Source of the DNA: Spirochaetota bacterium
Lineage (GTDB): Bacteria > Spirochaetota > UBA4802 > UBA5550
DNA: 64,000 nt
Direction of reading: 5' to 3'
Assembly: GCA_029564515.1 (NCBI GenBank)
Contig: JAKQPV010000026.1
Coordinates: forward strand, 158,066-222,065
Within the stretch, counting starts at the first letter, position 1. The number at the start of each line of letters is the position of its first letter. Below, piece by piece: positions 6,970 to 53,034 of the stretch. The notes under the pieces were generated by a model that saw only the letters and a program-made list of their open reading frames with translations, did not search any database and was not told the DNA's origin. Made by a program: the position numbers and the translations under genes.

Positions 6970-7683
6970 ATAGGCTCTGACCCCTCTATTAAAAATACAC
7001 CGCCAATCTCTTCAGGTAGGCCTCTTCATAGAACAGGAACTTTTTTACACACTCCTCGAAGGTATTACCGAGTTTATAAAAGTATTCATGCAGGGTAATT
7101 TTTACAGGCGCCACATGGTTTTTGTCCAGATAACAGTTTATGAACCCGATATCGTTCTCACGCGGATTCCTCGACAGGCCCTTTCTCACAGGATTGTACC
7201 CGATATACCATAACAGCCATAATAGATATTCCTCCGGATTATCCGCCTCCTCGATAATGCTGGATCCGAAGCGTTCATTCCAGAATGAGCCCGTGGTACC
7301 CATGGCCCTGTTGTATTTTTCCGCGATTCTGGCCTTGATATACTGCATTATCCGGGAGATTGTCTGTTTTTCCAGGTTGGTTTTAATGACCAGGTGAATG
7401 TGATTGGCGACAATCTCCGCGGCGACGAGCTCAAAATCATATTTCTCCTGGCACTCCCTGACTGCTTCAGTGAAATATTTTTTCCCGTATTTACCGAGCA
7501 GGAGATTCCTTTTCCCATGACACCTGCTGTATGCGTGGTGAGTAAGTCCCTGGGCTATTTTGCGTAACGGTCGTGGCATATGCTCCTCCTGATGTCTAAT
7601 ACGAATGGGAAGCGGCGGAATTGAAAAAAAACGGGGGTATCCGGGTCAGAGCATGGTATTTTTAAATCGGGGTCAGAGCCTAT
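6970..7683 (-). mobile_element. RAYT unit: a Y1 transposase gene bracketed by inverted REP sequences, in a locally AT-rich patch
   Basis: ATAGGCTCTGACCCC (6970-6984) is the exact reverse complement of GGGGTCAGAGCCTAT (7669-7683). An extra half-copy, GGGTCAGAGC, lies at 7643-7652. Confidence 0.7.
6989..7579 (-). CDS. REP-associated tyrosine transposase (IS200/IS605-family Y1 HUH transposase, RAYT type)
   Basis: HUH motif (ANHIHLVIKT) and a catalytic-Tyr helix (WYIGYNPVRKGL). The 196-aa size is typical of RAYTs. Confidence 0.8.
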   Translation of the reverse strand: MPRPLRKIAQGLTHHAYSRCHGKRNLLLGKYGKKYFTEAVRECQEKYDFELVAAEIVANHIHLVIKTNLEKQTISRIMQYIKARIAEKYNRAMGTTGSFWNERFGSSIIEEADNPEEYLLWLLWYIGYNPVRKGLSRNPRENDIGFINCYLDKNHVAPVKITLHEYFYKLGNTFEECVKKFLFYEEAYLKRLAVYF

Positions 7684-19183: not shown

Positions 19184-19195
19184 TAGAAAAATTTA

Positions 19196-19380
19196 AGTGC
19201 ATAGTGCATAGTGCATAGTGTATAGTGAATAGTGAATAGTTAATGTAACTGTTCCGCTCTTCCAGAGCGGAACAGTTATTTAACAGGTTGATCGTCCATC
19301 GTTAGTTATTTTTTTTATCCGCAGAAGCGGATAAAAAAAATAACCATAACTATTCACTATTCACTTTTAACTATTCACTG
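19196..19380. repeat. Heptamer-armed nested palindromic element, copy A (two inner hairpins)
   Basis: The left arm is (GTGCATA)x3-GTGTATA-(GTGAATA)x2-GTTAAT. The hairpins span 19247-19277 and 19306-19343. The right arm is ATAACTATTCACTATTCACTTTTAACTATTCACTG. Confidence 0.9.
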
Positions 19381-19413
19381 TTTATACCATACACAAGGGA
19401 GTAAGTAACACGT

Positions 19414-20280
19414 ATGCAGATATACCGGTTAGAGGATAAATGCAGTAATTGCATGCTGTGCGTGCGTGAATGCGTATCAGGCATATGGCGCAACGTCAAC
19501 GGCGTACCCACGCCCGTGGAGATCGACCTGTGCAACCGGTGCAGCCACTGCATAGCGGTGTGCCCGAAAAACGCCATCGTCCACGAGGGTCTCGACGCGA
19601 AGCAGGCACTCCCCGTGAAGAGTCTGAAAATCGACCCGGAGGCATACCGCGGCATAGTGCTCTCCCGCCGGAGCGTCCGCCAGTATAAGGACCGGGCCGT
19701 CCCGCGCGAGCTGATCGGGCGGATACTCGACCTTGCGCGGTATTCTCCCACCGCGAGCAACGACCAGAACGTCGGCTTCATCACGGTGACCGACCGCGCG
19801 CTGATAGGGGAGATCGCGGGCGGAATATTCGGGTTCGCGGACCGGCTCGCGGCCAGGCTCGAGACCGGCCCGGGTCGCCTCTTCATGAAGGTGACGGGAC
19901 TGGCAAAGAACCGCTACATCCGGCGCATGGATTACGCCCGCGAGATGGTCGCCGGGGGGAGGGACATTATCCTTCACAACGCCCCGGTTATGATCCTGGT
20001 GCACGGGCCCGCGAAAGGGAGCTTCGTCTGCGACAACTGCAGCATCGCCGCCACGAACATCATCAACTACGCGCATGCGCTCGGCCTGGGCACCTGCTAC
20101 ATCGGCTTTATGACCCTGGCCCTGCGCTTCAGCAAAAAACTCGGCAAGAAGCTGAAAGTCCCGGAAGGAAGAAAGGTGTACGCGAGCCTGGTAATGGGAT
20201 ACCCGGCTTATTCGCACCCGAATACTGTGTCGAGGAAGAAGGCGGATATACTATGGATAGAAAAATCAGTGAATAGTTGA
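19414..20280 (+). CDS. Fusion protein: N-terminal 2x[4Fe-4S] ferredoxin domain + nitroreductase domain
   Basis: CSNCMLCVRECV and CNRCSHCIAVCP, followed by RRSVRQYKDRAVP and PTASNDQN nitroreductase motifs. Confidence 0.8.
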   Translation: MQIYRLEDKCSNCMLCVRECVSGIWRNVNGVPTPVEIDLCNRCSHCIAVCPKNAIVHEGLDAKQALPVKSLKIDPEAYRGIVLSRRSVRQYKDRAVPRELIGRILDLARYSPTASNDQNVGFITVTDRALIGEIAGGIFGFADRLAARLETGPGRLFMKVTGLAKNRYIRRMDYAREMVAGGRDIILHNAPVMILVHGPAKGSFVCDNCSIAATNIINYAHALGLGTCYIGFMTLALRFSKKLGKKLKVPEGRKVYASLVMGYPAYSHPNTVSRKKADILWIEKSVNS

Positions 20281-20375
20281 TAGTTAATAGTGAATAGTTA
20301 ATGTAAATTTTATTCGCTCCTATGGAGCGAATAAAATTATCCATAACTGTTCACTATACACTATTCACTGTTCAC
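20268..20375. repeat. Heptamer-armed palindromic element, copy B (one inner hairpin, 20306-20338)
   Basis: AGTGAATAGTTGATAGTTAATAGTGAATAGTTAAT ... aattttattcgctcc-tat-ggagcgaataaaatt ... ATAACTGTTCACTATACACTATTCACTGTTCAC. Confidence 0.9.
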
Positions 20376-20393
20376 TAATTCAAGGAGGTCCTC

Positions 20394-21424: not shown

Positions 21425-21874
21425 ATGTTCAAAGAAAAGATACATACCGGGATCGATATCAACGCCGCTCCCGCGCTGGTCTGGAGCGTGCTGGCCGACC
21501 TGGCCCGCTACCCCGAATGGAACCCGATGATCCGCAGCGCCGCAGGCGAGCTGAAGCGCGGGAGCAGGCTCACCCTGCGGTTCAACCCGCCCGGGACAGG
21601 GGAAACAGTCTTTTGCCCGAAGCTTATGGTCGTGGACCCGGTGCGCGAGCTGCGCTGGCAGGGCCGGCCGGGATTCCCGCTCCTCTTCGAGAGCGTGCAT
21701 GTTTTCATCATCGAGCCGGCCGCAGCGGGCGGGTCCCGGCTCACGCACGACATGCTGTTCTACGGGCTGCTGATACCGCTTGCGCGGGCCAGGATCAGGC
21801 GGTCGATCGAGGGCCCCTTTGTACTGATGAACAAGGCGCTCAAGGCACAGGCTGAGAAAAGTAATGGACAGTAA
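21425..21874 (+). CDS. SRPBCC (polyketide cyclase/dehydrase-like) ligand-binding protein
   Basis: The N-terminal pattern INAAPALVWSVLADLARYPEWNPMI is typical of the SRPBCC/Polyketide_cyc2 family. Confidence 0.65.
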   Translation: MFKEKIHTGIDINAAPALVWSVLADLARYPEWNPMIRSAAGELKRGSRLTLRFNPPGTGETVFCPKLMVVDPVRELRWQGRPGFPLLFESVHVFIIEPAAAGGSRLTHDMLFYGLLIPLARARIRRSIEGPFVLMNKALKAQAEKSNGQ

Positions 21875-21877
21875 AAA

Positions 21878-21985
21878 AGTGAATAGTTAATAGTTAACAG
21901 TGAATAGTGAATGTAAATTTTATTCGCTCCAGTGGAGCGAATAAAATTATCCATAACTGTTCACTATACACTATTCACTGTACAC
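21878..21985. repeat. Heptamer-armed palindromic element, copy C (one inner hairpin, 21916-21948)
   Basis: The core and right arm are identical to copy B over about 80 bp except for the hairpin loop (agt vs tat). Confidence 0.9.
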
Positions 21986-21998
21986 TTAATAGGAATCC

Positions 21999-40231: not shown

Positions 40232-40526
40232 GCCGAACCTCCAATCATTTTTATTATATATATCTATTCGCTGGATAACAGCGGATATCGCGCCCCATCG
40301 TTGCTCCTTCGGACATTCTGGAATCTGGATTCCTGCAGTCAATAAAAGTACTGCCGAGCGGTGAATTAATTTAGAGAGATAACAGACATTGCTGCAGACG
40401 CGTTCGCACGTTGAACGGCCGGAAAAAATTATCCCGGAGAAGGCGCGAACTGGCCGTTCGTCTTGAAAAGATAATTGAACATGATGTATGATTTGTGCGG
40501 GATTGCGATGCGGAGGCGCGACAGAC

Positions 40527-40554
40527 GCGCTCAATGTTCATGAACATTGAGCGC
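40527..40554. promoter_or_regulatory. 28-bp perfect palindrome GCGCTCAATGTTCATGAACATTGAGCGC (operator- or terminator-like)
   Basis: Read directly. It lies 6 bp downstream of the stop of 40561..40914 and about 300 bp upstream of the acyl-CoA synthetase start. Confidence 0.5.
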
Positions 40555-40560
40555 TCTTTG

Positions 40561-40914
40561 TCACTTTCTGATAAAATATTCGAGGAGAAGGCGGAGACGC
40601 CCTCCAATCCCATCACCCTGGTAGAAGCGGAAGCCGTTCTCGGTCAGCGGAAACGCACCGGTGTAATGAACGCTCGAGATATCGCCGAACCTCTTCCGCA
40701 CGATGAGCGACTCGGGATCGACGTATCCCACGTCCACGAGCTCGAGGACCAGGAGCATCTCGCCCACATCGTCGATACGGACCGGGAAGGCGTCTTTCGG
40801 GTGGTTCTCGCGCATGGCCATGAGCCGCGCCAGGGCCGGCCGGTACCGCTTCCGGTTCTTCTTGAGTTTACGCATTTCAGTGCGGTAATCAACCATATGA
40901 ATTACTCCACGCAA
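40561..40914 (-). CDS. Hypothetical protein
   Basis: ORF only, with coding-like GC3. The start is ambiguous (M1 or MVDYRTEM). I recognise no family. Confidence 0.35.
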   Translation of the reverse strand: MRGVIHMVDYRTEMRKLKKNRKRYRPALARLMAMRENHPKDAFPVRIDDVGEMLLVLELVDVGYVDPESLIVRKRFGDISSVHYTGAFPLTENGFRFYQGDGIGGRLRLLLEYFIRK

Positions 40915-40930
40915 CGGGCTGTAACAACAA

Positions 40931-41050
40931 TAGTGAATAGTTATGGATGATTTTCAATGGAAGTTTAACCTTGTAAATAATTTTATCCGCTCTGCAAGAG
41001 CGGATAAAATTAACCACAACTTTTCACTATTCACTATTAACTATTCACTG
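40931..41050. repeat. Heptamer-armed palindromic element, copy D (one inner hairpin, 40979-41011)
   Basis: TAGTGAATAGTTATGGAT ... aattttatccgctc-tgcaa-gagcggataaaatt ... TTTTCACTATTCACTATTAACTATTCACTG. Confidence 0.9.
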
Positions 41051-41893
41051 TTTTTTATTATCAATATTCTCCGGCTCCATGTTGTGTATTATACTCAGGA
41101 CCGTATTGAGTTTCGAGTAATGCCCCCCGGTCACCGGGCCCATGGCGCCCTCGCCTCCCAGGAGCCTCTTGCTGATCTCGCGGGGCGGCAGCCCCTTGTC
41201 GTGAAGATCGAGCACCAGCGCGGAGAGGTCCTCCATGAAGCGGACTTTCTCCCGCAGCGCATCCCTGCCGTTGTCCACCGCCCCGAGCAGGCTGCAGAAT
41301 ATGGTCCCGAAATCGAGCCCGGCAAGCATCCCGAGCGTCTCCACGATGAGGGAATAGTTCTCGTCAGCGCGGAGGTACTTGAAGCCCCTGCCGCAAAAGA
41401 GGTCCCCGGTGAAGAGCCAGCCCTCCCGGGGCTCGTGCAGGCAGACATGGTGCGGCGTGTGCCCGGGTGACGGTATGACCTTCAGTGCGTACGGGCCGGC
41501 CTGCACCACTCCCGGCAGCGGGTCCGCGTCCGAGGGCGCGGGCCATCCCCACACCACGCGCTGGTAGGGCCTAAGCTTCAGGAGACGCGGGTTCTTCAGA
41601 ACCGGCAGCGCCCCGGCCGGCGCAAGCACGCGCGCGCCAAAATGGCCCTGGAGCAGGTCGTTGCCTCCGATATGGTCCTCATGCTGGTGAGTGTTGATCA
41701 CCGTACGTATAATCCTCCCTTCCAGAACCGATGCCAGCTCCCTTCGCACGCAGGGCGCCCCGGTATCGATCATGGTGTCGCCCACCAGGAAGGCATGCAC
41801 CGGGTAGAGGACGAAGCGGCCGATGCTCCGGCCCATCCTGATAACGGTTACGGGACCATGCTCGGATGTTTTGATCATGCCGATACTCTCCAC
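41045..41893 (-). CDS. MBL-fold metallo-hydrolase paralog
   Basis: VINTHQHEDHIGG and SPGHTPHH. The start is GTG at 41893 or ATG (MIKTSEH) at 41878. The stop TGA lies inside repeat copy D. Confidence 0.8.
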   Translation of the reverse strand: MESIGMIKTSEHGPVTVIRMGRSIGRFVLYPVHAFLVGDTMIDTGAPCVRRELASVLEGRIIRTVINTHQHEDHIGGNDLLQGHFGARVLAPAGALPVLKNPRLLKLRPYQRVVWGWPAPSDADPLPGVVQAGPYALKVIPSPGHTPHHVCLHEPREGWLFTGDLFCGRGFKYLRADENYSLIVETLGMLAGLDFGTIFCSLLGAVDNGRDALREKVRFMEDLSALVLDLHDKGLPPREISKRLLGGEGAMGPVTGGHYSKLNTVLSIIHNMEPENIDNKKQ

Positions 41894-41894
41894 T

Positions 41895-42076
41895 AGCGAA
41901 TAGTTAATAGTTAATAGTGTATAGTGAATAGTTATGGATGATTTTTAATCTGCTCGATGAGCAGATTAAAAATCAATTTAAAATGGAAGTTTATCCTTGT
42001 AAATAATTTTATCCGCTCTGTAAGAGCGGATAAAATTAACCACCACTATTCACTATACACTATTAACTATTCACTG
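41895..42076. repeat. Heptamer-armed palindromic element, copy E (two inner hairpins, 41940-41974 and 42005-42037)
   Basis: AGCGAATAGTTAATAGTTAATAGTGTATAGTGAATAGTTATGGAT ... CACTATTCACTATACACTATTAACTATTCACTG. Confidence 0.9.
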
Positions 42077-42406
42077 AATTTTCCTCATTTCCCAAACAGT
42101 GCCTTTCGGGTCCGGGCAGTGAATCCTGAAGATCCTCCTGTTATCGCTGTTCCATGACGGAAACCCGAATGCGGCGCGCCACACGTACAGGTCGAGCACG
42201 TGCAGGAGGGCACGGCACACTCCTTCAGGCTTCTGGTACGGGTTTTCGTACACGAACACGTCTCCAAGATTGTGCCTGCACTCCTCGTTCTTTTCCACCA
42301 TCCTGATCTCCAGCCTGCTGACGCGTTTCCAGAACTCAAGGTAGTCCCTGTGGTCCCTGATTGCGTCCAGGTCAAGGTTCAGGTCGATGCCCGTATCGTG
42401 GTCCAT
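42071..42406 (-). CDS. Small Cys-containing protein resembling the TIGR04076 family
   Basis: The pattern GDVFVYENPYQKPEGVCRALLHVL...FGFPSW...IHCPDPKGTVWEMRK resembles TIGR04076 from memory. The stop TGA lies inside repeat copy E. Confidence 0.5.
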   Translation of the reverse strand: MDHDTGIDLNLDLDAIRDHRDYLEFWKRVSRLEIRMVEKNEECRHNLGDVFVYENPYQKPEGVCRALLHVLDLYVWRAAFGFPSWNSDNRRIFRIHCPDPKGTVWEMRKIQ

Positions 42407-42424
42407 ATGCTCCTCCCTGCGTCC

Positions 42425-42901
42425 CTATTGCGGTATCGTGATGCCGCGCGAGGTGAAGGACACGCCCTGCTGCCCCCCGGTCCCGATCATGACGGCTTCC
42501 ACCAGCGGCCTGCTCACGCCGGCGTCGCCGCGCCACTTCACGACGAAACAGGCGCCGCTCCCGCCGCGCTCGTCCGACTCCTTCACGACGAACTGCACCG
42601 TGGCGAGGGGCCCGACCGTGCGGTCTCCGGCCAGGTAGGCATGGACCAGCTTCCCGGCGCCGTTATGGTAATAGACCCGGTGCACGGTTATCGCCTTCAC
42701 CGTGTCAGTGTTGCGGACGCTCAGCGTGACCGCAAGGTCGAACTCGCGCTCGCGGTCCCCGTGGAATATGGACGAATACGCGGGTACGTACACGGTCTCG
42801 GCCGCCTGGCCGCCCTTCTGCTTAGCCACTGCCATTGCCGCCATTACAAACAGCACAACCGCGACTGTGGCGCAAGCAGTTCTGAGCAATATCTTCTTCA
42901 T
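42425..42901 (-). CDS. DUF3124-like secreted protein
   Basis: Signal peptide, then VYVPAYSSIFHG... and a C-terminal MIGTGGQQGVSFTSRG pattern, recalled from DUF3124. Confidence 0.6.
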   Translation of the reverse strand: MKKILLRTACATVAVVLFVMAAMAVAKQKGGQAAETVYVPAYSSIFHGDREREFDLAVTLSVRNTDTVKAITVHRVYYHNGAGKLVHAYLAGDRTVGPLATVQFVVKESDERGGSGACFVVKWRGDAGVSRPLVEAVMIGTGGQQGVSFTSRGITIPQ

Positions 42902-43165
42902 GGCTTTCCTCCATAATCCTTTGAAATTAATCGTCTCTCGCAGAGGCGCAGAAACGCAGAGGAATGATTAAAAAAAATATATCTTATATAAGAATACTCC
43001 ATGAAAAATCAGGTTGTCTTTTTTATATAAACATACTCATACTTAAGGACAACCATGGCCCTTCTTCCAAACTGTATAAGCCTGATGCCTTAATTGAGCT
43101 ATAATAATTGATGAAGCCAACTTGTAGTCCTTTCTCTGCGCCTCCGCGCCTCCGCGAGATTTTTT

Positions 43166-45124
43166 TTATCGGGTGAAAAGCTCCCCGAACCTCCTCTTCT
43201 GGTCCGGCAGCCCGATTATTGCGAGCAGGTCGCCCGGTTCGAACGTGAAGTCCGCATCCGGATTGGGAACGAACCTCCCACCCCTCATCACGCCCACGAT
43301 CGAGGCCCCGGTCCTGGTGCGGACGGCAAGCTCCTTGATGGACCTGCCGGCAAGCCCGTCTCCCCGCATCACCTCGACCCAGCTCGTCTCAAGCAAAAAG
43401 GGGGTGTCCTTCACCCGCGCCAGGAGCGCCTGCCGGGCATCGTCGCCGCGGAGAGGGGAGTACTGCCTGCCCCGGATCTCGTCCGTGACCCGCTGGATAG
43501 AAGCCACGGGCACATCGAGCTGGAGCAGCGACTGCCGGATCATCTCCAGGCTCGCCTCGAACTCCGGCTGGACTGCCTCGAAAACGTCCAGGTCATACAG
43601 CTCTTTCAGATGGGTCGAGTCGTCCGCCCGCGCCAGCACCCTCATGCCGTTGTTGCAGGAAAGCGAATGCGCCACGACGTCCCGGGCGACCGAGAACGCC
43701 GGCGTGGTGACAACCAGGAGCCGCGCGAAGCAGACGCCGGCAGCGGCGAGGACCGTCTCCTGCGCCGCGTCGCCGAAAATGACCGGGAACCCGGCCCGCT
43801 TGCACTCCTCGAACCGCCGGAAATCCTGCTCGATCACGATAAAGCTGAAACCGAGCGTGGCCAGTATCGAGGCGATCTGGAATCCTACCCTGCCCCCTCC
43901 CGCAATAATGACGTGACGGTCCAGGCCCCCGTGCGGCAGGTTGACGGTCTGCACCGGCTCTCCCCTGAACAATCTCTTTTTGATGGAATAGATCGGCAGT
44001 GCGAGCCAGGAGAGCAGCGGCGCGATGATCATCGTTATGACCGACACGGAGAGCACCAGCGAATAGAAATCCGCCCGTATCGCGCCGCTCTTCAGCCCCT
44101 CGCGCGCGAGCACGAAGGAGAACTCGCCGATCTGCGCGAGGCTCAGCCCCATGGCAAGGGGGATTATGTTTACATAGCGGAAGGCCGCGCCCATGACAGC
44201 GAACACGACGAACTTGCCGGCGACGACAAGGCCGACCAGGGCCAGTATCATGGGCAGGTTGCCCGCCACGAACGCGGGGTCCAGGAGCATCCCGATCGAC
44301 GTGAAGAATACCAGGCCAAAGATGTCCCGCAGGGGGACGATGTCGCTGAGCGCCCGGTGGCCGTAGTCGGACCCGTTGATGACCATGCCGGCGACGAATG
44401 CGCCGAACGCGAGCGAGAGGCCCGCCAGGTGGGTAAGATACCCGACGCCCAGTCCGATCGCGGTGACCGCGACCAGGAAGAGCTCCCTCGAGTCGAGCTT
44501 CGCCACGAGCTTCAGCATGCGGGGGATGGCCATCATGCCTATGACCACGACAGCGGCGAGGATGAGCGCGGCCTTGAGCATCGTGGCCGCGAAAAGCCCC
44601 AGGTTGCCGGAAAGGTCGCCGAGCCGCGGGATGACGATCATGAGCGGGATCGCGGCCAGGTCCTGCACGATCAGTATGCCGATCATGACCCTGCTCGAGA
44701 GGGTGCCGGTGAGGCCCCGGGCCATGAGCGTCTTCAGCACGACCATGGTGCTGGAGAGCGACAGCACCATGCCGAACACCAGCGACGCCTGCCATCCCAT
44801 GCCGAAGATGCTCCCGATCCCGAACCCGTAGCCGATCAGGAGAATGACCTGTAACGGTGTGCCAATCAGGGCGATCGCCCGCACGTCTTTCAGCTCCCTG
44901 AAGGAAAAATCGAGCCCAATTGAGAAGAGAAGGAGCGCGACGCCGATCTCCGCGAGCAGCTCGACGCGGGGGATGTCCGTCACCGTCACGCCGCCGGTAA
45001 ACGGTCCTATGAAGATCCCGGCCAGGATATAGCCCACGATGGGCGGGAGCTTGACCCGCGTCGCCGCCAGGCCGAACAGCAGGCCCGCGATTATGATGAT
45101 AATGAGGTCTTCCGCTATTCCCAT
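43166..45124 (-). CDS. CPA2 cation:proton antiporter (Kef-type) with TrkA-N and TrkA-C domains
   Basis: About 12 TM helices, then the Rossmann motif [13 protein letters not shown] and a C-terminal RCK_C-like domain. Confidence 0.85.
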
Positions 45125-50320: not shown

Positions 50321-51085
50321 CTACCTGCTCAGGTTCTCGAGGTACGCCTTGGTGAATATCTTGGGGTCGAGCTTCTCGGTCGAAATGCCCGAGAGCTCCA
50401 CGATGGTCTTGTTCCCCTTCTCGAACTCGTCTATGAAAATCATCTGGATCGGGATGTACTTGCCGTCCACCACGGTCCACTTCGGATAATACGCGGTCTG
50501 CATCAGCGTGCCCGAGAGGGAGTAGGACTCGATCTTGAGCGGGAGGAAATTGTCCCGCTGGACCCAGTATACCTGCTTGGGATACGTGACATCGTTGACC
50601 TTCGCGATGATGGTGAACCTGTACACGGCCTTTTTCCCCAGCATTTCCTCGGTGACGCCGCCCTCCTCGGTCTGCGGTCTGTACAGCTCCACCAGCTTCC
50701 TCTTCTCGAAATCACCGCCCTTGGCGTCGGTGCCCATGATGCTCTCGTCACGGCTGATGTGCTGGAAGGTGCGGGTGTTCTGCCGGTACATCCAGAAGTT
50801 CTCGCCCACGCGCAGGTACCCGTTGCCCTTCTCCGTGTCCGGGGCCAGTATCACGATAAGGAACTCGTCGGTCTTGTCGCGCCTGAAATAGAGCGACTCG
50901 TAGGACTTGACCCCCTGGCGCACCTTGTTCTGCACCATCGACGCCTTGACGGAAATGTCGCCGATCTGCTCCATCATGAAGTCGATCTTCCTGATGATAT
51001 CGCCGGCACGGGGCGCCGCCCGGGCCGTCAAGGCGGCGAAAAGCAATATCGCAATTAAAGCGGAACGGAATAATCTCATTATCAT
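50321..51085 (-). CDS. Outer-membrane lipoprotein-sorting (LolA-like fold) protein
   Basis: Signal peptide. GYLRVGENFWMYRQNTRTFQHISRDESIMGTDAKGGDFE resembles the LolA_like family. Confidence 0.6.
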   Translation of the reverse strand: MIMRLFRSALIAILLFAALTARAAPRAGDIIRKIDFMMEQIGDISVKASMVQNKVRQGVKSYESLYFRRDKTDEFLIVILAPDTEKGNGYLRVGENFWMYRQNTRTFQHISRDESIMGTDAKGGDFEKRKLVELYRPQTEEGGVTEEMLGKKAVYRFTIIAKVNDVTYPKQVYWVQRDNFLPLKIESYSLSGTLMQTAYYPKWTVVDGKYIPIQMIFIDEFEKGNKTIVELSGISTEKLDPKIFTKAYLENLSR

Positions 51086-51106
51086 ATACCCATATACCTT
51101 TCATAT

Positions 51107-51287
51107 AGTAGTGCATAGTTAATAACGAATAGTGAATAGTTATTGTAAATATTTTCCGCTCTTCCAGAGCGGAAAATATTTTATTATGATGTTAATCGTT
51201 TATTCTCAAGCAATTTTCCATCCGCTCAGGTAGAGCGGATGGAAAATTATCCGCAACTATTCACTAATCACTATTCACTATTAACTG
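51107..51287. repeat. Heptamer-armed palindromic element, copy F (two inner hairpins, 51148-51180 and 51212-51248)
   Basis: AGTAGTGCATAGTTAATAACGAATAGTGAATAGTTATTGTAAAT ... CGCAACTATTCACTAATCACTATTCACTATTAACTG. Confidence 0.9.
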
Positions 51288-51294
51288 TCTTTTA

Positions 51295-53034
51295 CTACTC
51301 AAAATGCCTCAGCGCTTCCACCGCCGGGAGCTCGGACGCCCGCCGCGCGGGAAAATAGGACGTGGCCGCCGCCATGACCAGGATCAGGAAAAAATAAAAG
51401 GAAATCGCGGCCGCCGACGGGAGAAAATAGAGGTGCCGGTCCACCAGCAGGATTGACAGGATGCTGTCGGATTGAATATGGAAGAGGCTCAGCACTCCCA
51501 TCATCATGAAGGCCATGACGATCCCCGCCAGGCAGGCGATCGCCGTCAGGAGCACCGTTTCTATTATGAACAGGTACTTGACGTCCGACTTCTGCATGCC
51601 GATGGCCCTGACGGTCCCTATCTCCCGCGTCCTCTCGCGTATGGTCATCCGCAGGGTGTTGAGCACGCCGATCAGTATTATGAAAAAGAGTATCATGACC
51701 GCCACCAGGGACACGACGAACAGCGCAAACTCGAACGTGATGATGAAGTCCGCGCTTTCGTACATGGTGCGCACGTCAAGCCACGGCCCGCGCCACCTCG
51801 TCCGGGTCATCTCCGCAAGCTTTGTTTCCAGCTCATCGTTCGTTTTGGTCCGCGGCAGCAGCTTCCATTCGGGCGAGAAGAGGGAATAAACCGGCGACTT
51901 CCTGTCCGGCCGGTACCCGCCCGCGCTCTTCGGAAGGTTTTCCAGATATGTTTTATAAAACGTCTTCTCATTGAGGAGAATGATCCCCTCTTCGGGAAGC
52001 ACGTCGGAGACCAGGACCCCGCTGACGTTATACGTATTCTCGGTCCGCCCGCCTCCGAACCTGTTGTCATATGAAACGGTGAACGGGTCCCCCGGCCTGA
52101 GACCAAGGCCGGCCGCCAGCTTCCGCCCCAGCAGGGCGCCGTCATCGGACGCTTCTTCCGGCACGGCTCCCGCCGTTATCGTAAGGTGCCTGTTCATCAG
52201 GGCGCGTGCGTCCGCATCGCCTGCAAACCCCAGGACCGTTACCGCCGCGGCCGTCTTTCCGCGGGAAGCCTCCCCGCCTATCGCGGCGATGCCGGGCTTC
52301 AGCTTCGCATACAGCCTGTCAGCCTCGCGCTTCGCAGCCCGTTCGTTGTTTGTTTTATTGAAGATGACATGGAGCTCGCCCGTCTCGTGGGGCTTCAGCC
52401 CGATCATGGCCTTCAGGGTCTTCAGGGGAAGGTACACCGCCATTCCCTCGAACATGTTGCTGGAGCGCAGCACCGCCGCCACGGTCAGGCGGGCCGCCTG
52501 CGACTGCCCGGTGATGGTGTTGGTCCGCATGTTGATCGTGTCACGCGGCTTCACGCCCAGCACCTTCGCCTTGTCCGAATATATGATCACCGGGTTTTCC
52601 AGCGTGCCCGAGGTGAAGTCCTTCAAGCTGCCGCTGATAAGGCTCTGGTTGAGATACTCTTCGAATTCCCTGTTTACCTCGACCCCCACGACAATGGTAT
52701 TATCGCCCCGCGCATTCCCGATCAGGCGGGCAAAACGGCCGATGGACTCGTCGATCTCCTTGATGTCATTGACGTTATTCCTGATGATCCGGATGATCCT
52801 GTCCTTGTCCCGGATGATGGGCCTGTTCTGGCTGCTGTTTTCCATTATCGTGACGCTCATGTGGCCGGTCATGTACACGACCATCCGGTTCAGGATATTG
52901 TCGGTGATGCCATGCGAGAAGGAGCTGGTCATGACCAGGATCATCATGCCGAACGCGATGGCAACGCCCAGGAAAACGCTTCTCCTCTTCTGGCGCAGCA
53001 GGTTCCTCAGACCGAGTGATAGCAGGAGCTTCAT
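51295..53034 (-). CDS. ABC transporter permease, FtsX/MacB/LolC-like
   Basis: An N-terminal TM helix, a large periplasmic domain, and a C-terminal FtsX 3-TM bundle. Confidence 0.8.
   Translation of the reverse strand: MKLLLSLGLRNLLRQKRRSVFLGVAIAFGMMILVMTSSFSHGITDNILNRMVVYMTGHMSVTIMENSSQNRPIIRDKDRIIRIIRNNVNDIKEIDESIGRFARLIGNARGDNTIVVGVEVNREFEEYLNQSLISGSLKDFTSGTLENPVIIYSDKAKVLGVKPRDTINMRTNTITGQSQAARLTVAAVLRSSNMFEGMAVYLPLKTLKAMIGLKPHETGELHVIFNKTNNERAAKREADRLYAKLKPGIAAIGGEASRGKTAAAVTVLGFAGDADARALMNRHLTITAGAVPEEASDDGALLGRKLAAGLGLRPGDPFTVSYDNRFGGGRTENTYNVSGVLVSDVLPEEGIILLNEKTFYKTYLENLPKSAGGYRPDRKSPVYSLFSPEWKLLPRTKTNDELETKLAEMTRTRWRGPWLDVRTMYESADFIITFEFALFVVSLVAVMILFFIILIGVLNTLRMTIRERTREIGTVRAIGMQKSDVKYLFIIETVLLTAIACLAGIVMAFMMMGVLSLFHIQSDSILSILLVDRHLYFLPSAAAISFYFFLILVMAAATSYFPARRASELPAVEALRHFE

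Follow-up and report, generated by a model that had tools for sequence, protein, structure and literature searches.

Heptamer-armed palindromic repeats at stop codons in a Spirochaetota genome and their relation to S23p-type cassettes

Two palindromic repeats, which we call copies D and E, flank a gene for an MBL-fold hydrolase in a 64,000-nucleotide stretch of the genome of a Spirochaetota bacterium (assembly GCA_029564515.1, contig JAKQPV010000026.1, positions 158,066 to 222,065; the window). They raise the question of how a repeat comes to lie on a stop codon, and at what cost to the gene that ends there. The original prediction, made from the letters of the window alone, offered two answers, a preferred insertion target at gene 3′ ends or an element that captures and truncates those ends. 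Here we describe the anatomy of D and E, the stops that they donate, the statistics of their position, the C termini that they leave preserved, the direction of the deletion that separates them and their link to a gene of the PF05635 (S23p) family. The explanation that we favour, and regard as fairly probable, is that D and E are decaying, gene-less derivatives of a selfish cassette of the type known from S23p intervening sequences (IVS), lodged on stop codons. The genome that contains the window, a 4.3-Mb draft of 85% completeness (G000), was compared with its congeners, of which G001, G002, G003, G008, G012 and G015 are named below; loci outside the window are given by contig handle and position.

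Two copies that donate stop codons

Members of the family have inverted arrays as arms, each of 2–8 tandem 7-nt units (CAGTGAA, TAGTGAA, TAGTTAA, TAGTGTA and others), around a core of one or two hairpins built on CCGCTC-N-GAGCGG with A/T-rich extensions. When an arm is read inward, TGA, TAG and TAA cover all three frames within 14 nt. Copy E (41898..42076) is a full two-hairpin member. Its left arm (41901..41935, plus strand) has five heptamer units and points toward the start of the MBL gene, hairpin 1 lies at 41940..41974 (GATTTTTAATCTGCTC-GAT-GAGCAGATTAAAAATC), hairpin 2, with the CCGCTC..GAGCGG core common to the family, lies at 42004..42038 (TAATTTTATCCGCTCT-GTA-AGAGCGGATAAAATTA), and the right arm (42042..42076, minus strand) again has five units. 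Copy D (40931..41053) is a one-hairpin member with a truncated left arm. Its right arm (41016..41050) consists of five tandem units that read CAGTGAA, TAGTTAA, TAGTGAA, TAGTGAA and AAGTTGT on the minus strand, and its 16-bp core hairpin (40978..41012; TAATTTTATCCGCTCT-GCA-AGAGCGGATAAAATTA) has no U-tract on the gene strand. Two units remain of the left arm (40931..40944, plus strand), followed by an orphan half-stem at 40949..40958 (GATTTTCAAT, against GATTTTTAAT in E), a remnant of the second hairpin that E retains.

Both donated stops lie in the outermost right-arm unit, as originally predicted. On the plus strand this unit reads ...AACTATTCACTG in D and in E, and the two TGAs fall inside the terminal ...CTATTCACTG of the respective copy. 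The MBL gene (41045..41893, minus strand; PF00753, a generic Lactamase_B fold) ends AAA CAG TGA, its stop at 41045..41047 occupying the first unit (CAG|TGA) of the D right arm. A TIGR04076-family gene of 111 aa (42071..42406, minus strand; 33.2 bits against a cut-off of 33) ends ATT CAG TGA, with its stop at 42071..42073 in the first unit of the E right arm.

In a pairwise alignment, D lacks two parts of E, a block of 35 nt and the outer 26 nt of the left arm. Over the rest the two copies are about 93% identical, and the best match of E in the genome is D. It had been proposed that E is D plus an inserted module. The extra hairpin at 41940–41974 and the longer left arm of E are real, but the direction is the reverse: because D retains the orphan half-stem, it is a deletion derivative of an E-like two-hairpin copy that lost one hairpin (35 nt) and the outer arm (26 nt). 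Every other long copy (A, F, C19:44183 and C104:42934) also has the two-hairpin plan of E. The idea of a modular family holds, as one-hairpin and two-hairpin size classes exist. The RNA of E, folded from the gene strand, forms a 31-bp outer stem between the arms and two inner hairpins of 16–17 bp (−90.2 kcal/mol, z = −18.5), and that of D folds more weakly, with a 12-bp outer stem (−43.1 kcal/mol, z = −7.9).

Repeats lie at gene 3′ ends across the genome

The family has about 28 loci in the draft genome, including 'half' copies (one array and one hairpin) and array-only mini-copies; no matches to the core hairpin pattern were expected in shuffled sequence. The window holds six copies: A (19185–19385), B (20258–20382), C (21868–21992), D, E and F (51098–51292). 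Neighbouring copies are mutual closest relatives (93% for B/C as for D/E). Rfam, searched at the gathering threshold over the entire window, gave no matches, neither to rRNA nor to copies A–F.

We surveyed element ends against 3471 genes called with a simple self-written program. With raw regular-expression boundaries, 28 arm ends were directed at the 3′ end of a gene; 20 of them contained the stop or lay within 5 nt of it, and 26 lay within 12 nt. After degenerate outer units had been extended by hand and one arm missed by the expression had been added, 26 of 29 were within 5 nt. A random point in a co-directional or convergent gap falls within 5 nt of a stop with a probability of 0.045, or 0.097 if only gaps of at most 250 nt are used; the tail probabilities computed were 1.4e-22 (21/29 at 0.045) and 1.3e-23 (26/29, with hand-curated boundaries, at 0.097). 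The original prediction had been staked on such a survey, which showed the enrichment, far above the 4.5% expected for random intergenic placement. As a pattern, then, the preference for gene 3′ ends has strong support.

Family members sit on the stop codon of the upstream gene or 0–7 nt behind it, and just ahead of the next gene's ribosome-binding site; where an arm points at a gene start, it ends 11–35 nt upstream and spares only this site. Eight genes have their stop within the arm: those at C19:44191, C77:1187, C107:57502, C107:66401 and C120:33844, the one left of B, and the MBL and TIGR04076 genes. In five of these eight (at D, E, C77:1187, C107:66401 and C107:57502) the donated stop gives a terminal glutamine by CAG-TGA. 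Some junctions recur, TAA-GG-CAGTGAAT five times (once adjoining a tRNA) and TRA-AATA-CAGT three times; beyond the stop itself, no target consensus was found other than these TAAGG and AAATA junctions. Array-only mini-copies of three units without a hairpin, at C33:75768-75785 and C55:88603-88634, make up the whole 16–30-nt spacer between co-oriented genes, and the inner end of the latter, AGTTAAGGAG, is the ribosome-binding site of the next gene.

We prefer to read this position as the result of site-selective insertion at stop codons. A rival that we think rather improbable is passive placement, in which insertion anywhere between genes, together with selection against insertions into coding sequence, ribosome-binding sites and promoters, very short native gaps and loss of spacer that the stops and hairpins of the element make redundant, would leave the survivors flush with stops without any targeting. 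Several observations fit such a process. Copy F occupies the permease/LolA-like gap of a Lol-like operon (51085–51295) that natively measures 16–17 nt in three congeners (G012, G008 and G001), and 42% of co-directional gaps do not exceed 30 nt. Unrelated palindromes in G015 and G003 lie directly behind the same stops, which points to a property of the gaps and not of one element; at the F-site, three different hairpin/repeat elements follow the stop directly in G000 (copy F), G015 and G003. Moreover, all-frame stops make deletions that reach the end of an open reading frame (ORF) harmless. However, at least 13 copies in gaps of 144–1127 nt are still no more than 5 nt away from a stop, so short gaps alone do not explain the proximity. 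The enrichment also persists when gaps of at most 250 nt serve as the null, the junctions recur as described above, and the flush position is found at PF05635 cassettes of other phyla as well.

Gene ends keep their native last codon

Comparison with orthologues bears on the second of the predicted answers, that the element captures and truncates gene ends. This answer found no support: all seven sites with comparable orthologues retain the last native sense codon, and tail lengths differ only slightly, by +1 to +4 residues, or by −2 at one remnant in G015. The TIGR04076 protein ends ..VWEMKKI* natively in G015 and ..VWEMRKIQ* with the element in G000, a gain of one residue. The MBL protein ends ..EPENISLME* in G015, ..EPEALA* in G003 and ..EPENIDNKKQ* with the element in G000; the region of this tail is variable among species anyway, and five residues of the tail are replaced in G000. 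For the gene left of B, the native ..WIEK* with a TAA stop in G003 becomes ..WIEKSVNS* in G000 and ..WIEKNSK* at the decayed copy in G015. A sulfatase-like gene ends ..GWVKK* natively in G001, ..GWVRKQ* in G000 and ..GWVKGSVQ* at a two-unit remnant in G015. GreA, which ends ..EKYSG/AG* in ten genomes, keeps ..KKYSG* in G000, its TAG being the first triplet of a TAGTTAA unit. At a PFK-like gene, at C19:100722 and at the F-site, the native stop position is retained and the element lies 2, 3 and 7 nt behind it, respectively. Some comparisons of C termini for the C77 gene were out of frame and were disregarded. The elements thus sit at stop codons without truncating genes, and the cost to the protein is trivial. 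G000 and G015 share the copy at C107:57502 together with its CAG-TGA stop; therefore, stop donation can outlast speciation.

In the insertion model that we favour, the native stop would be displaced when the element inserts, and the ORF would then run into the first arm units and end there, a frame-0 entry giving CAG-TGA and hence a glutamine before the stop. Arrays with stops in all frames would render the stop-codon position harmless. For annotation, short Gln-stop or similar tails beside such repeats are to be taken as element-derived and not as truncations or fusions.

At the greA site, a full two-hairpin copy (C19:44182-44373) separates greA from a tRNA gene; the gap between these genes measures 16–50 nt in ten congeners. 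The greA codons TAC AGT GGA (conserved Y-S-G) resemble the CAGTGAA unit, and there may be microhomology at the junction. At the G015 greA site there is a four-unit array only, and GreA is two residues shorter. We also considered a 27-nt deletion that would have fused the MBL ORF to the TGA of D, based on AATAAAAAACA, which is common with the G015 3′ untranslated region; this string is too short and A-rich, and we left the deletion as conjecture.

A PF05635 cassette carries the same arms

PF05635 has a single match in G000 (95 bits, C85:7943-8242), and this gene forms a cassette (C85:7856-8393) with arms of the same kind. To one side of the gene is AGTGAATAGTTAATAACGAATAGTGAATAGTTATGG; to the other are a CCGCTC hairpin and an inverted array. 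Its own TAA stop falls in the left arm, at the inner edge. The gene has an apparent +1 frameshift at an A5 run just after the ATG; alternatively, it has a poorly placed TTG start. Among 17 congeners, PF05635 occurs only in G000, which has the largest family, and in G002, where the gene is broken and the arms have AGTTRTW as their unit; there too, the cassette directly adjoins a TGA and the next start codon. The closest homologues (46–56% identity) come from Tannerella, Symbiothrix, a Bacteroidetes metagenome-assembled genome and Crocosphaera; each lies between inverted heptamer arrays that have a unit of their own, as does an Algoriphagus PF05635 gene. Three of the four closest homologues have an upstream ORF that ends within the array, 10 nt in (..IEN*, ..IEN* and ..IES*); in the remaining one the array starts at the stop. 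Of the features of a classical miniature inverted-repeat transposable element (MITE), the family has terminal inverted repeats; no transposase with matching ends was found, the master copy carrying PF05635 instead.

On this basis we propose that the family derives from the selfish PF05635 cassette at C85:7856-8393 and that D and E are sibling gene-less copies of it. A broader version of the proposal, which we put forward tentatively and consider somewhat unlikely as it stands, is that heptamer-armed PF05635 cassettes and their gene-less derivatives make up a mobile class that homes to the translated stop codon and lands on it or a few nucleotides after it. If true, such homing would explain why 7-nt repeats pile up behind stops in many phyla, would make the arrays an adaptation that renders insertion harmless and would give a role to the long-enigmatic S23p four-helix-bundle protein.

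A different partner was considered, namely that the copies are repeats of the REP/REPIN type moved by a RAYT-like Y1 transposase of this genome. G000 has seven Y1_Tnp matches, one of them in the window (~7244–7540, minus strand), and the repeats here are palindromic doublets without target duplications. But where a repeat is visible beside Y1_Tnp genes it is of the GGGGTCAGAGC / GCTCTGAC type, never the heptamer arms or the CCGCTC hairpin; none of the seven genes is flanked by heptamers, and the heptamer arms frame the PF05635 gene instead. We therefore regard such mobilization as very improbable. Six of the Y1 transposase genes are RAYT-like and encode about 190–235 aa (one is cut by a contig end); they lie at ~7244–7540 of the window and on C127, C85, C96, C109 and C138. 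Several have a different repeat next to them (GGGGTCAGAGC / GCTCTGACCCC), and the copy at C107:66470 is followed by a tandem cluster of this repeat.

Several points weigh against derivation from a PF05635 cassette by insertion at stop codons. No empty D or E site was found: in the sole syntenic genome, G015, both gaps hold another palindromic family, and the insertion events themselves were therefore not observed. A search of metagenomes with the MBL protein, seeking strains with the empty site, gave only relatives of at most 42% identity. No target-site duplication was visible at the full copies inspected by eye, an inspection that was not systematic, and we know of no enzyme or insertion chemistry for this class of element. 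Given the apparent frameshift in the PF05635 gene, the family may now be immobile. The position survey is weakened by the crude gene caller and by arm boundaries that were partly curated by hand, and at the operon-internal F-site, with its native gap of 16–17 nt, closeness to the stop is partly forced.

Termination and RNA processing

A scan for terminators called none in D or E: their stems are followed by AUAAAAUUA (3 U in 9), short of an intrinsic terminator. Since they have no U-tract, D and E are not intrinsic terminators; they are probably read through, and the three genes around them, from the TIGR04076 gene to a 117-aa gene downstream of D, are probably co-transcribed. The sole terminator-like site in the scanned interval 40400–43200 is a 28-bp perfect palindrome (40527–40554) behind the 117-aa gene, which may mark the true end of the transcription unit. 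The 31-bp stem between the arms of E is a likely substrate for RNase III, by analogy with S23p IVS, and processing of the E RNA would take place there; the RNase III gene (rnc) is present in G000. HutP, which binds UAG-N4-UAG (period 7) before hairpins, was also sought, and no HutP gene was found, which is weak evidence in a genome of 85% completeness.

The hairpins of the family differ with context. The six operon-internal copies (A–F of the window) have 2–5 T in the 9 nt after the hairpin stem, against a median of 6 T in 9 nt at operon-end or convergent copies (Mann-Whitney p = 4e-4), which are mostly canonical bidirectional terminators with an A-run, a stem and a U-run; the operon-end members reach 6–8 U in 9. 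This bears on another rival, that the repeats are host-recruited 3′ modules, selected as a gene-end signal that would combine an all-frame translation stop with, inside operons, a hairpin that serves RNA processing or stability and, at operon ends, a terminator for both directions; the position of the repeats would follow from this function. Besides the concentration of U-tracts at operon-end and convergent copies, several copies lie at orthologous sites in G000 and G015, and array-only mini-copies fill 16–30-nt gaps, one of them supplying a ribosome-binding site via AGTTAAGGAG. Against recruitment, a BLAST search with copy E did not find the family in 14 of 16 congeners, being convincing in G015 only, with a few weak matches elsewhere in the order. 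Even in G015 the copies have decayed, with the hairpin lost and arrays of 2–4 units, or a different family occupies the site, while the flanking genes were kept, and D itself is degraded. We judge it unlikely that the host has recruited these repeats, and return to the decaying selfish cassette as the better account.

Turnover of repeats at the same sites

Among 16 congeners, the order of the TIGR04076, MBL and 117-aa genes is found in G015 only, where both gaps are filled by a different repeat family. The 117-aa gene (40561..40914, minus strand) probably starts at ATG 40896, as in G015, and not at TTG 40914; likewise, G015 orthologues point to ATG 41878 and not GTG 41893 as the start of the MBL gene. 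Each of these starts has a GGAG ribosome-binding site. D and E do bracket the MBL gene, as the original prediction had noted, but the bracketing does not make a cassette. We rejected a D-MBL-E composite transposon or cassette, as G015 has the identical order with another element family and the MBL gene has no foreign features.

A related rival is that gene and repeat move together as integron-like cassettes, each repeat acting as an attC-like element, with D and E delimiting an MBL cassette. Strings of genes and elements in a single orientation (A-B-C and E-D) and the close kinship of adjacent copies would suit it, as would a G015 element that is duplicated, with about 60 nt of a gene end, around a BrnT/BrnA-like pair. 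Yet no integrase exceeded the cut-off (the best, TIGR02249, scored 120 bits against a cut-off of 265), the arms lack RYYYAAC / GTTRRRY core sites by inspection, and different elements flank the syntenic MBL gene in G015. We consider an integron-like origin extremely improbable. The G015 duplication, at C90 ~560–1600, involves a heptamer element and the last ~60 nt of the upstream gene on either side of a ~870-bp BrnT/BrnA-like toxin–antitoxin insert, and suggests that recombination can insert DNA at heptamer elements.

The second palindromic family has arms of tandem CGCAGAGN octamers and a terminal inverted repeat of about CTCGCAGAGGCGCAGAAACGCAGAG. It occupies the A-, D- and E-sites of G015, with heptamer scraps (TAGTGAA and ATAGTTATT) beside its ends. 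G000 has 15 matches to its arms, several as inverted pairs 100–470 nt apart. One copy in the window (42937–43160) fills the gap between the stop of a Kef-type antiporter gene (43166) and the start of a DUF3124 gene (42901).

Comparison with known elements

For decades, heptamer repeats behind stops have been known separately from the S23p intervening sequences, and to our knowledge neither has a known mechanism. The family in G000 unites arms with and without an S23p gene, a near-invariant position at stops with the C terminus kept, hairpins matched to their context, and, in a sister species, ongoing decay or a different palindromic family at the same site. It thereby makes testable the idea of a single kind of selfish element with an insertion habit linked to stop codons.

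Correia elements of Neisseria are MITEs of about 100–160 bp with terminal inverted repeats, are co-transcribed and cleaved by RNase III as long hairpins, and affect their neighbours in a context-dependent manner. They duplicate a TA target, and their terminal inverted repeats are non-repetitive; no TA duplication was seen in the family described here. Repeats of the REP/BIME/REPIN type (REP, repetitive extragenic palindromic) are likewise short, gene-less, palindromic and intergenic, are modular with one or two hairpins, lack target duplications and act as RNA stabilizers or terminators. They differ in that no RAYT partner with the same repeat was found here and in that the arms of our family are tandem heptamers, not a single REP with a GTAG head.

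Closer in unit structure are the intergenic heptamer repeats: TAACTGA of Beggiatoaceae, Cyanobacteria and Bacteroidetes (PMC4679880), GGGNATC (PMC4692102) and the cyanobacterial STRR. All consist of tandem 7-nt units concentrated between co-oriented genes and give stops in three frames in the forward orientation. Heptamer repeats overlap the stops of 13 ORFs in a Beggiatoaceae genome (MacGregor et al., PMC4679880), and the GGGNATC repeats of Xanthomonas and Nostoc are enriched within 50 bp of stop codons (Rehm et al., PMC4692102). As in the TAACTGA type, forward heptamer units with all-frame stops overlap ORF ends in G000. Unlike our family, the repeats in these reports are described alone, with no mention of a two-arm palindrome, a hairpin core or a PF05635 master copy, and their unit sequences are different.

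The closest likeness is to the S23p/PF05635 IVS of 23S rRNA in Coxiella burnetii and Leptospira (PMC4990558), which places a four-helix-bundle gene between heptamer-bearing terminal inverted repeats. The Coxiella IVS has an S23p ORF, tandem heptamers in variable number and a 28-bp terminal stem, and is excised by RNase III (PMC4990558). In that IVS, as in the family described here, the arms pair into a stem of about 28–31 bp, and both are selfish and patchily distributed with a decaying ORF. The differences are of place and content. A strict-sense IVS is an insertion in a 23S rRNA helix (helix 45) that is cut out of the pre-rRNA, whereas D and E are gene-less, have protein-coding flanks and lie on stop codons. 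They also carry extra CCGCTC..GAGCGG hairpins, and cleavage by RNase III, which was shown for the IVS, would extend to D and E by analogy.

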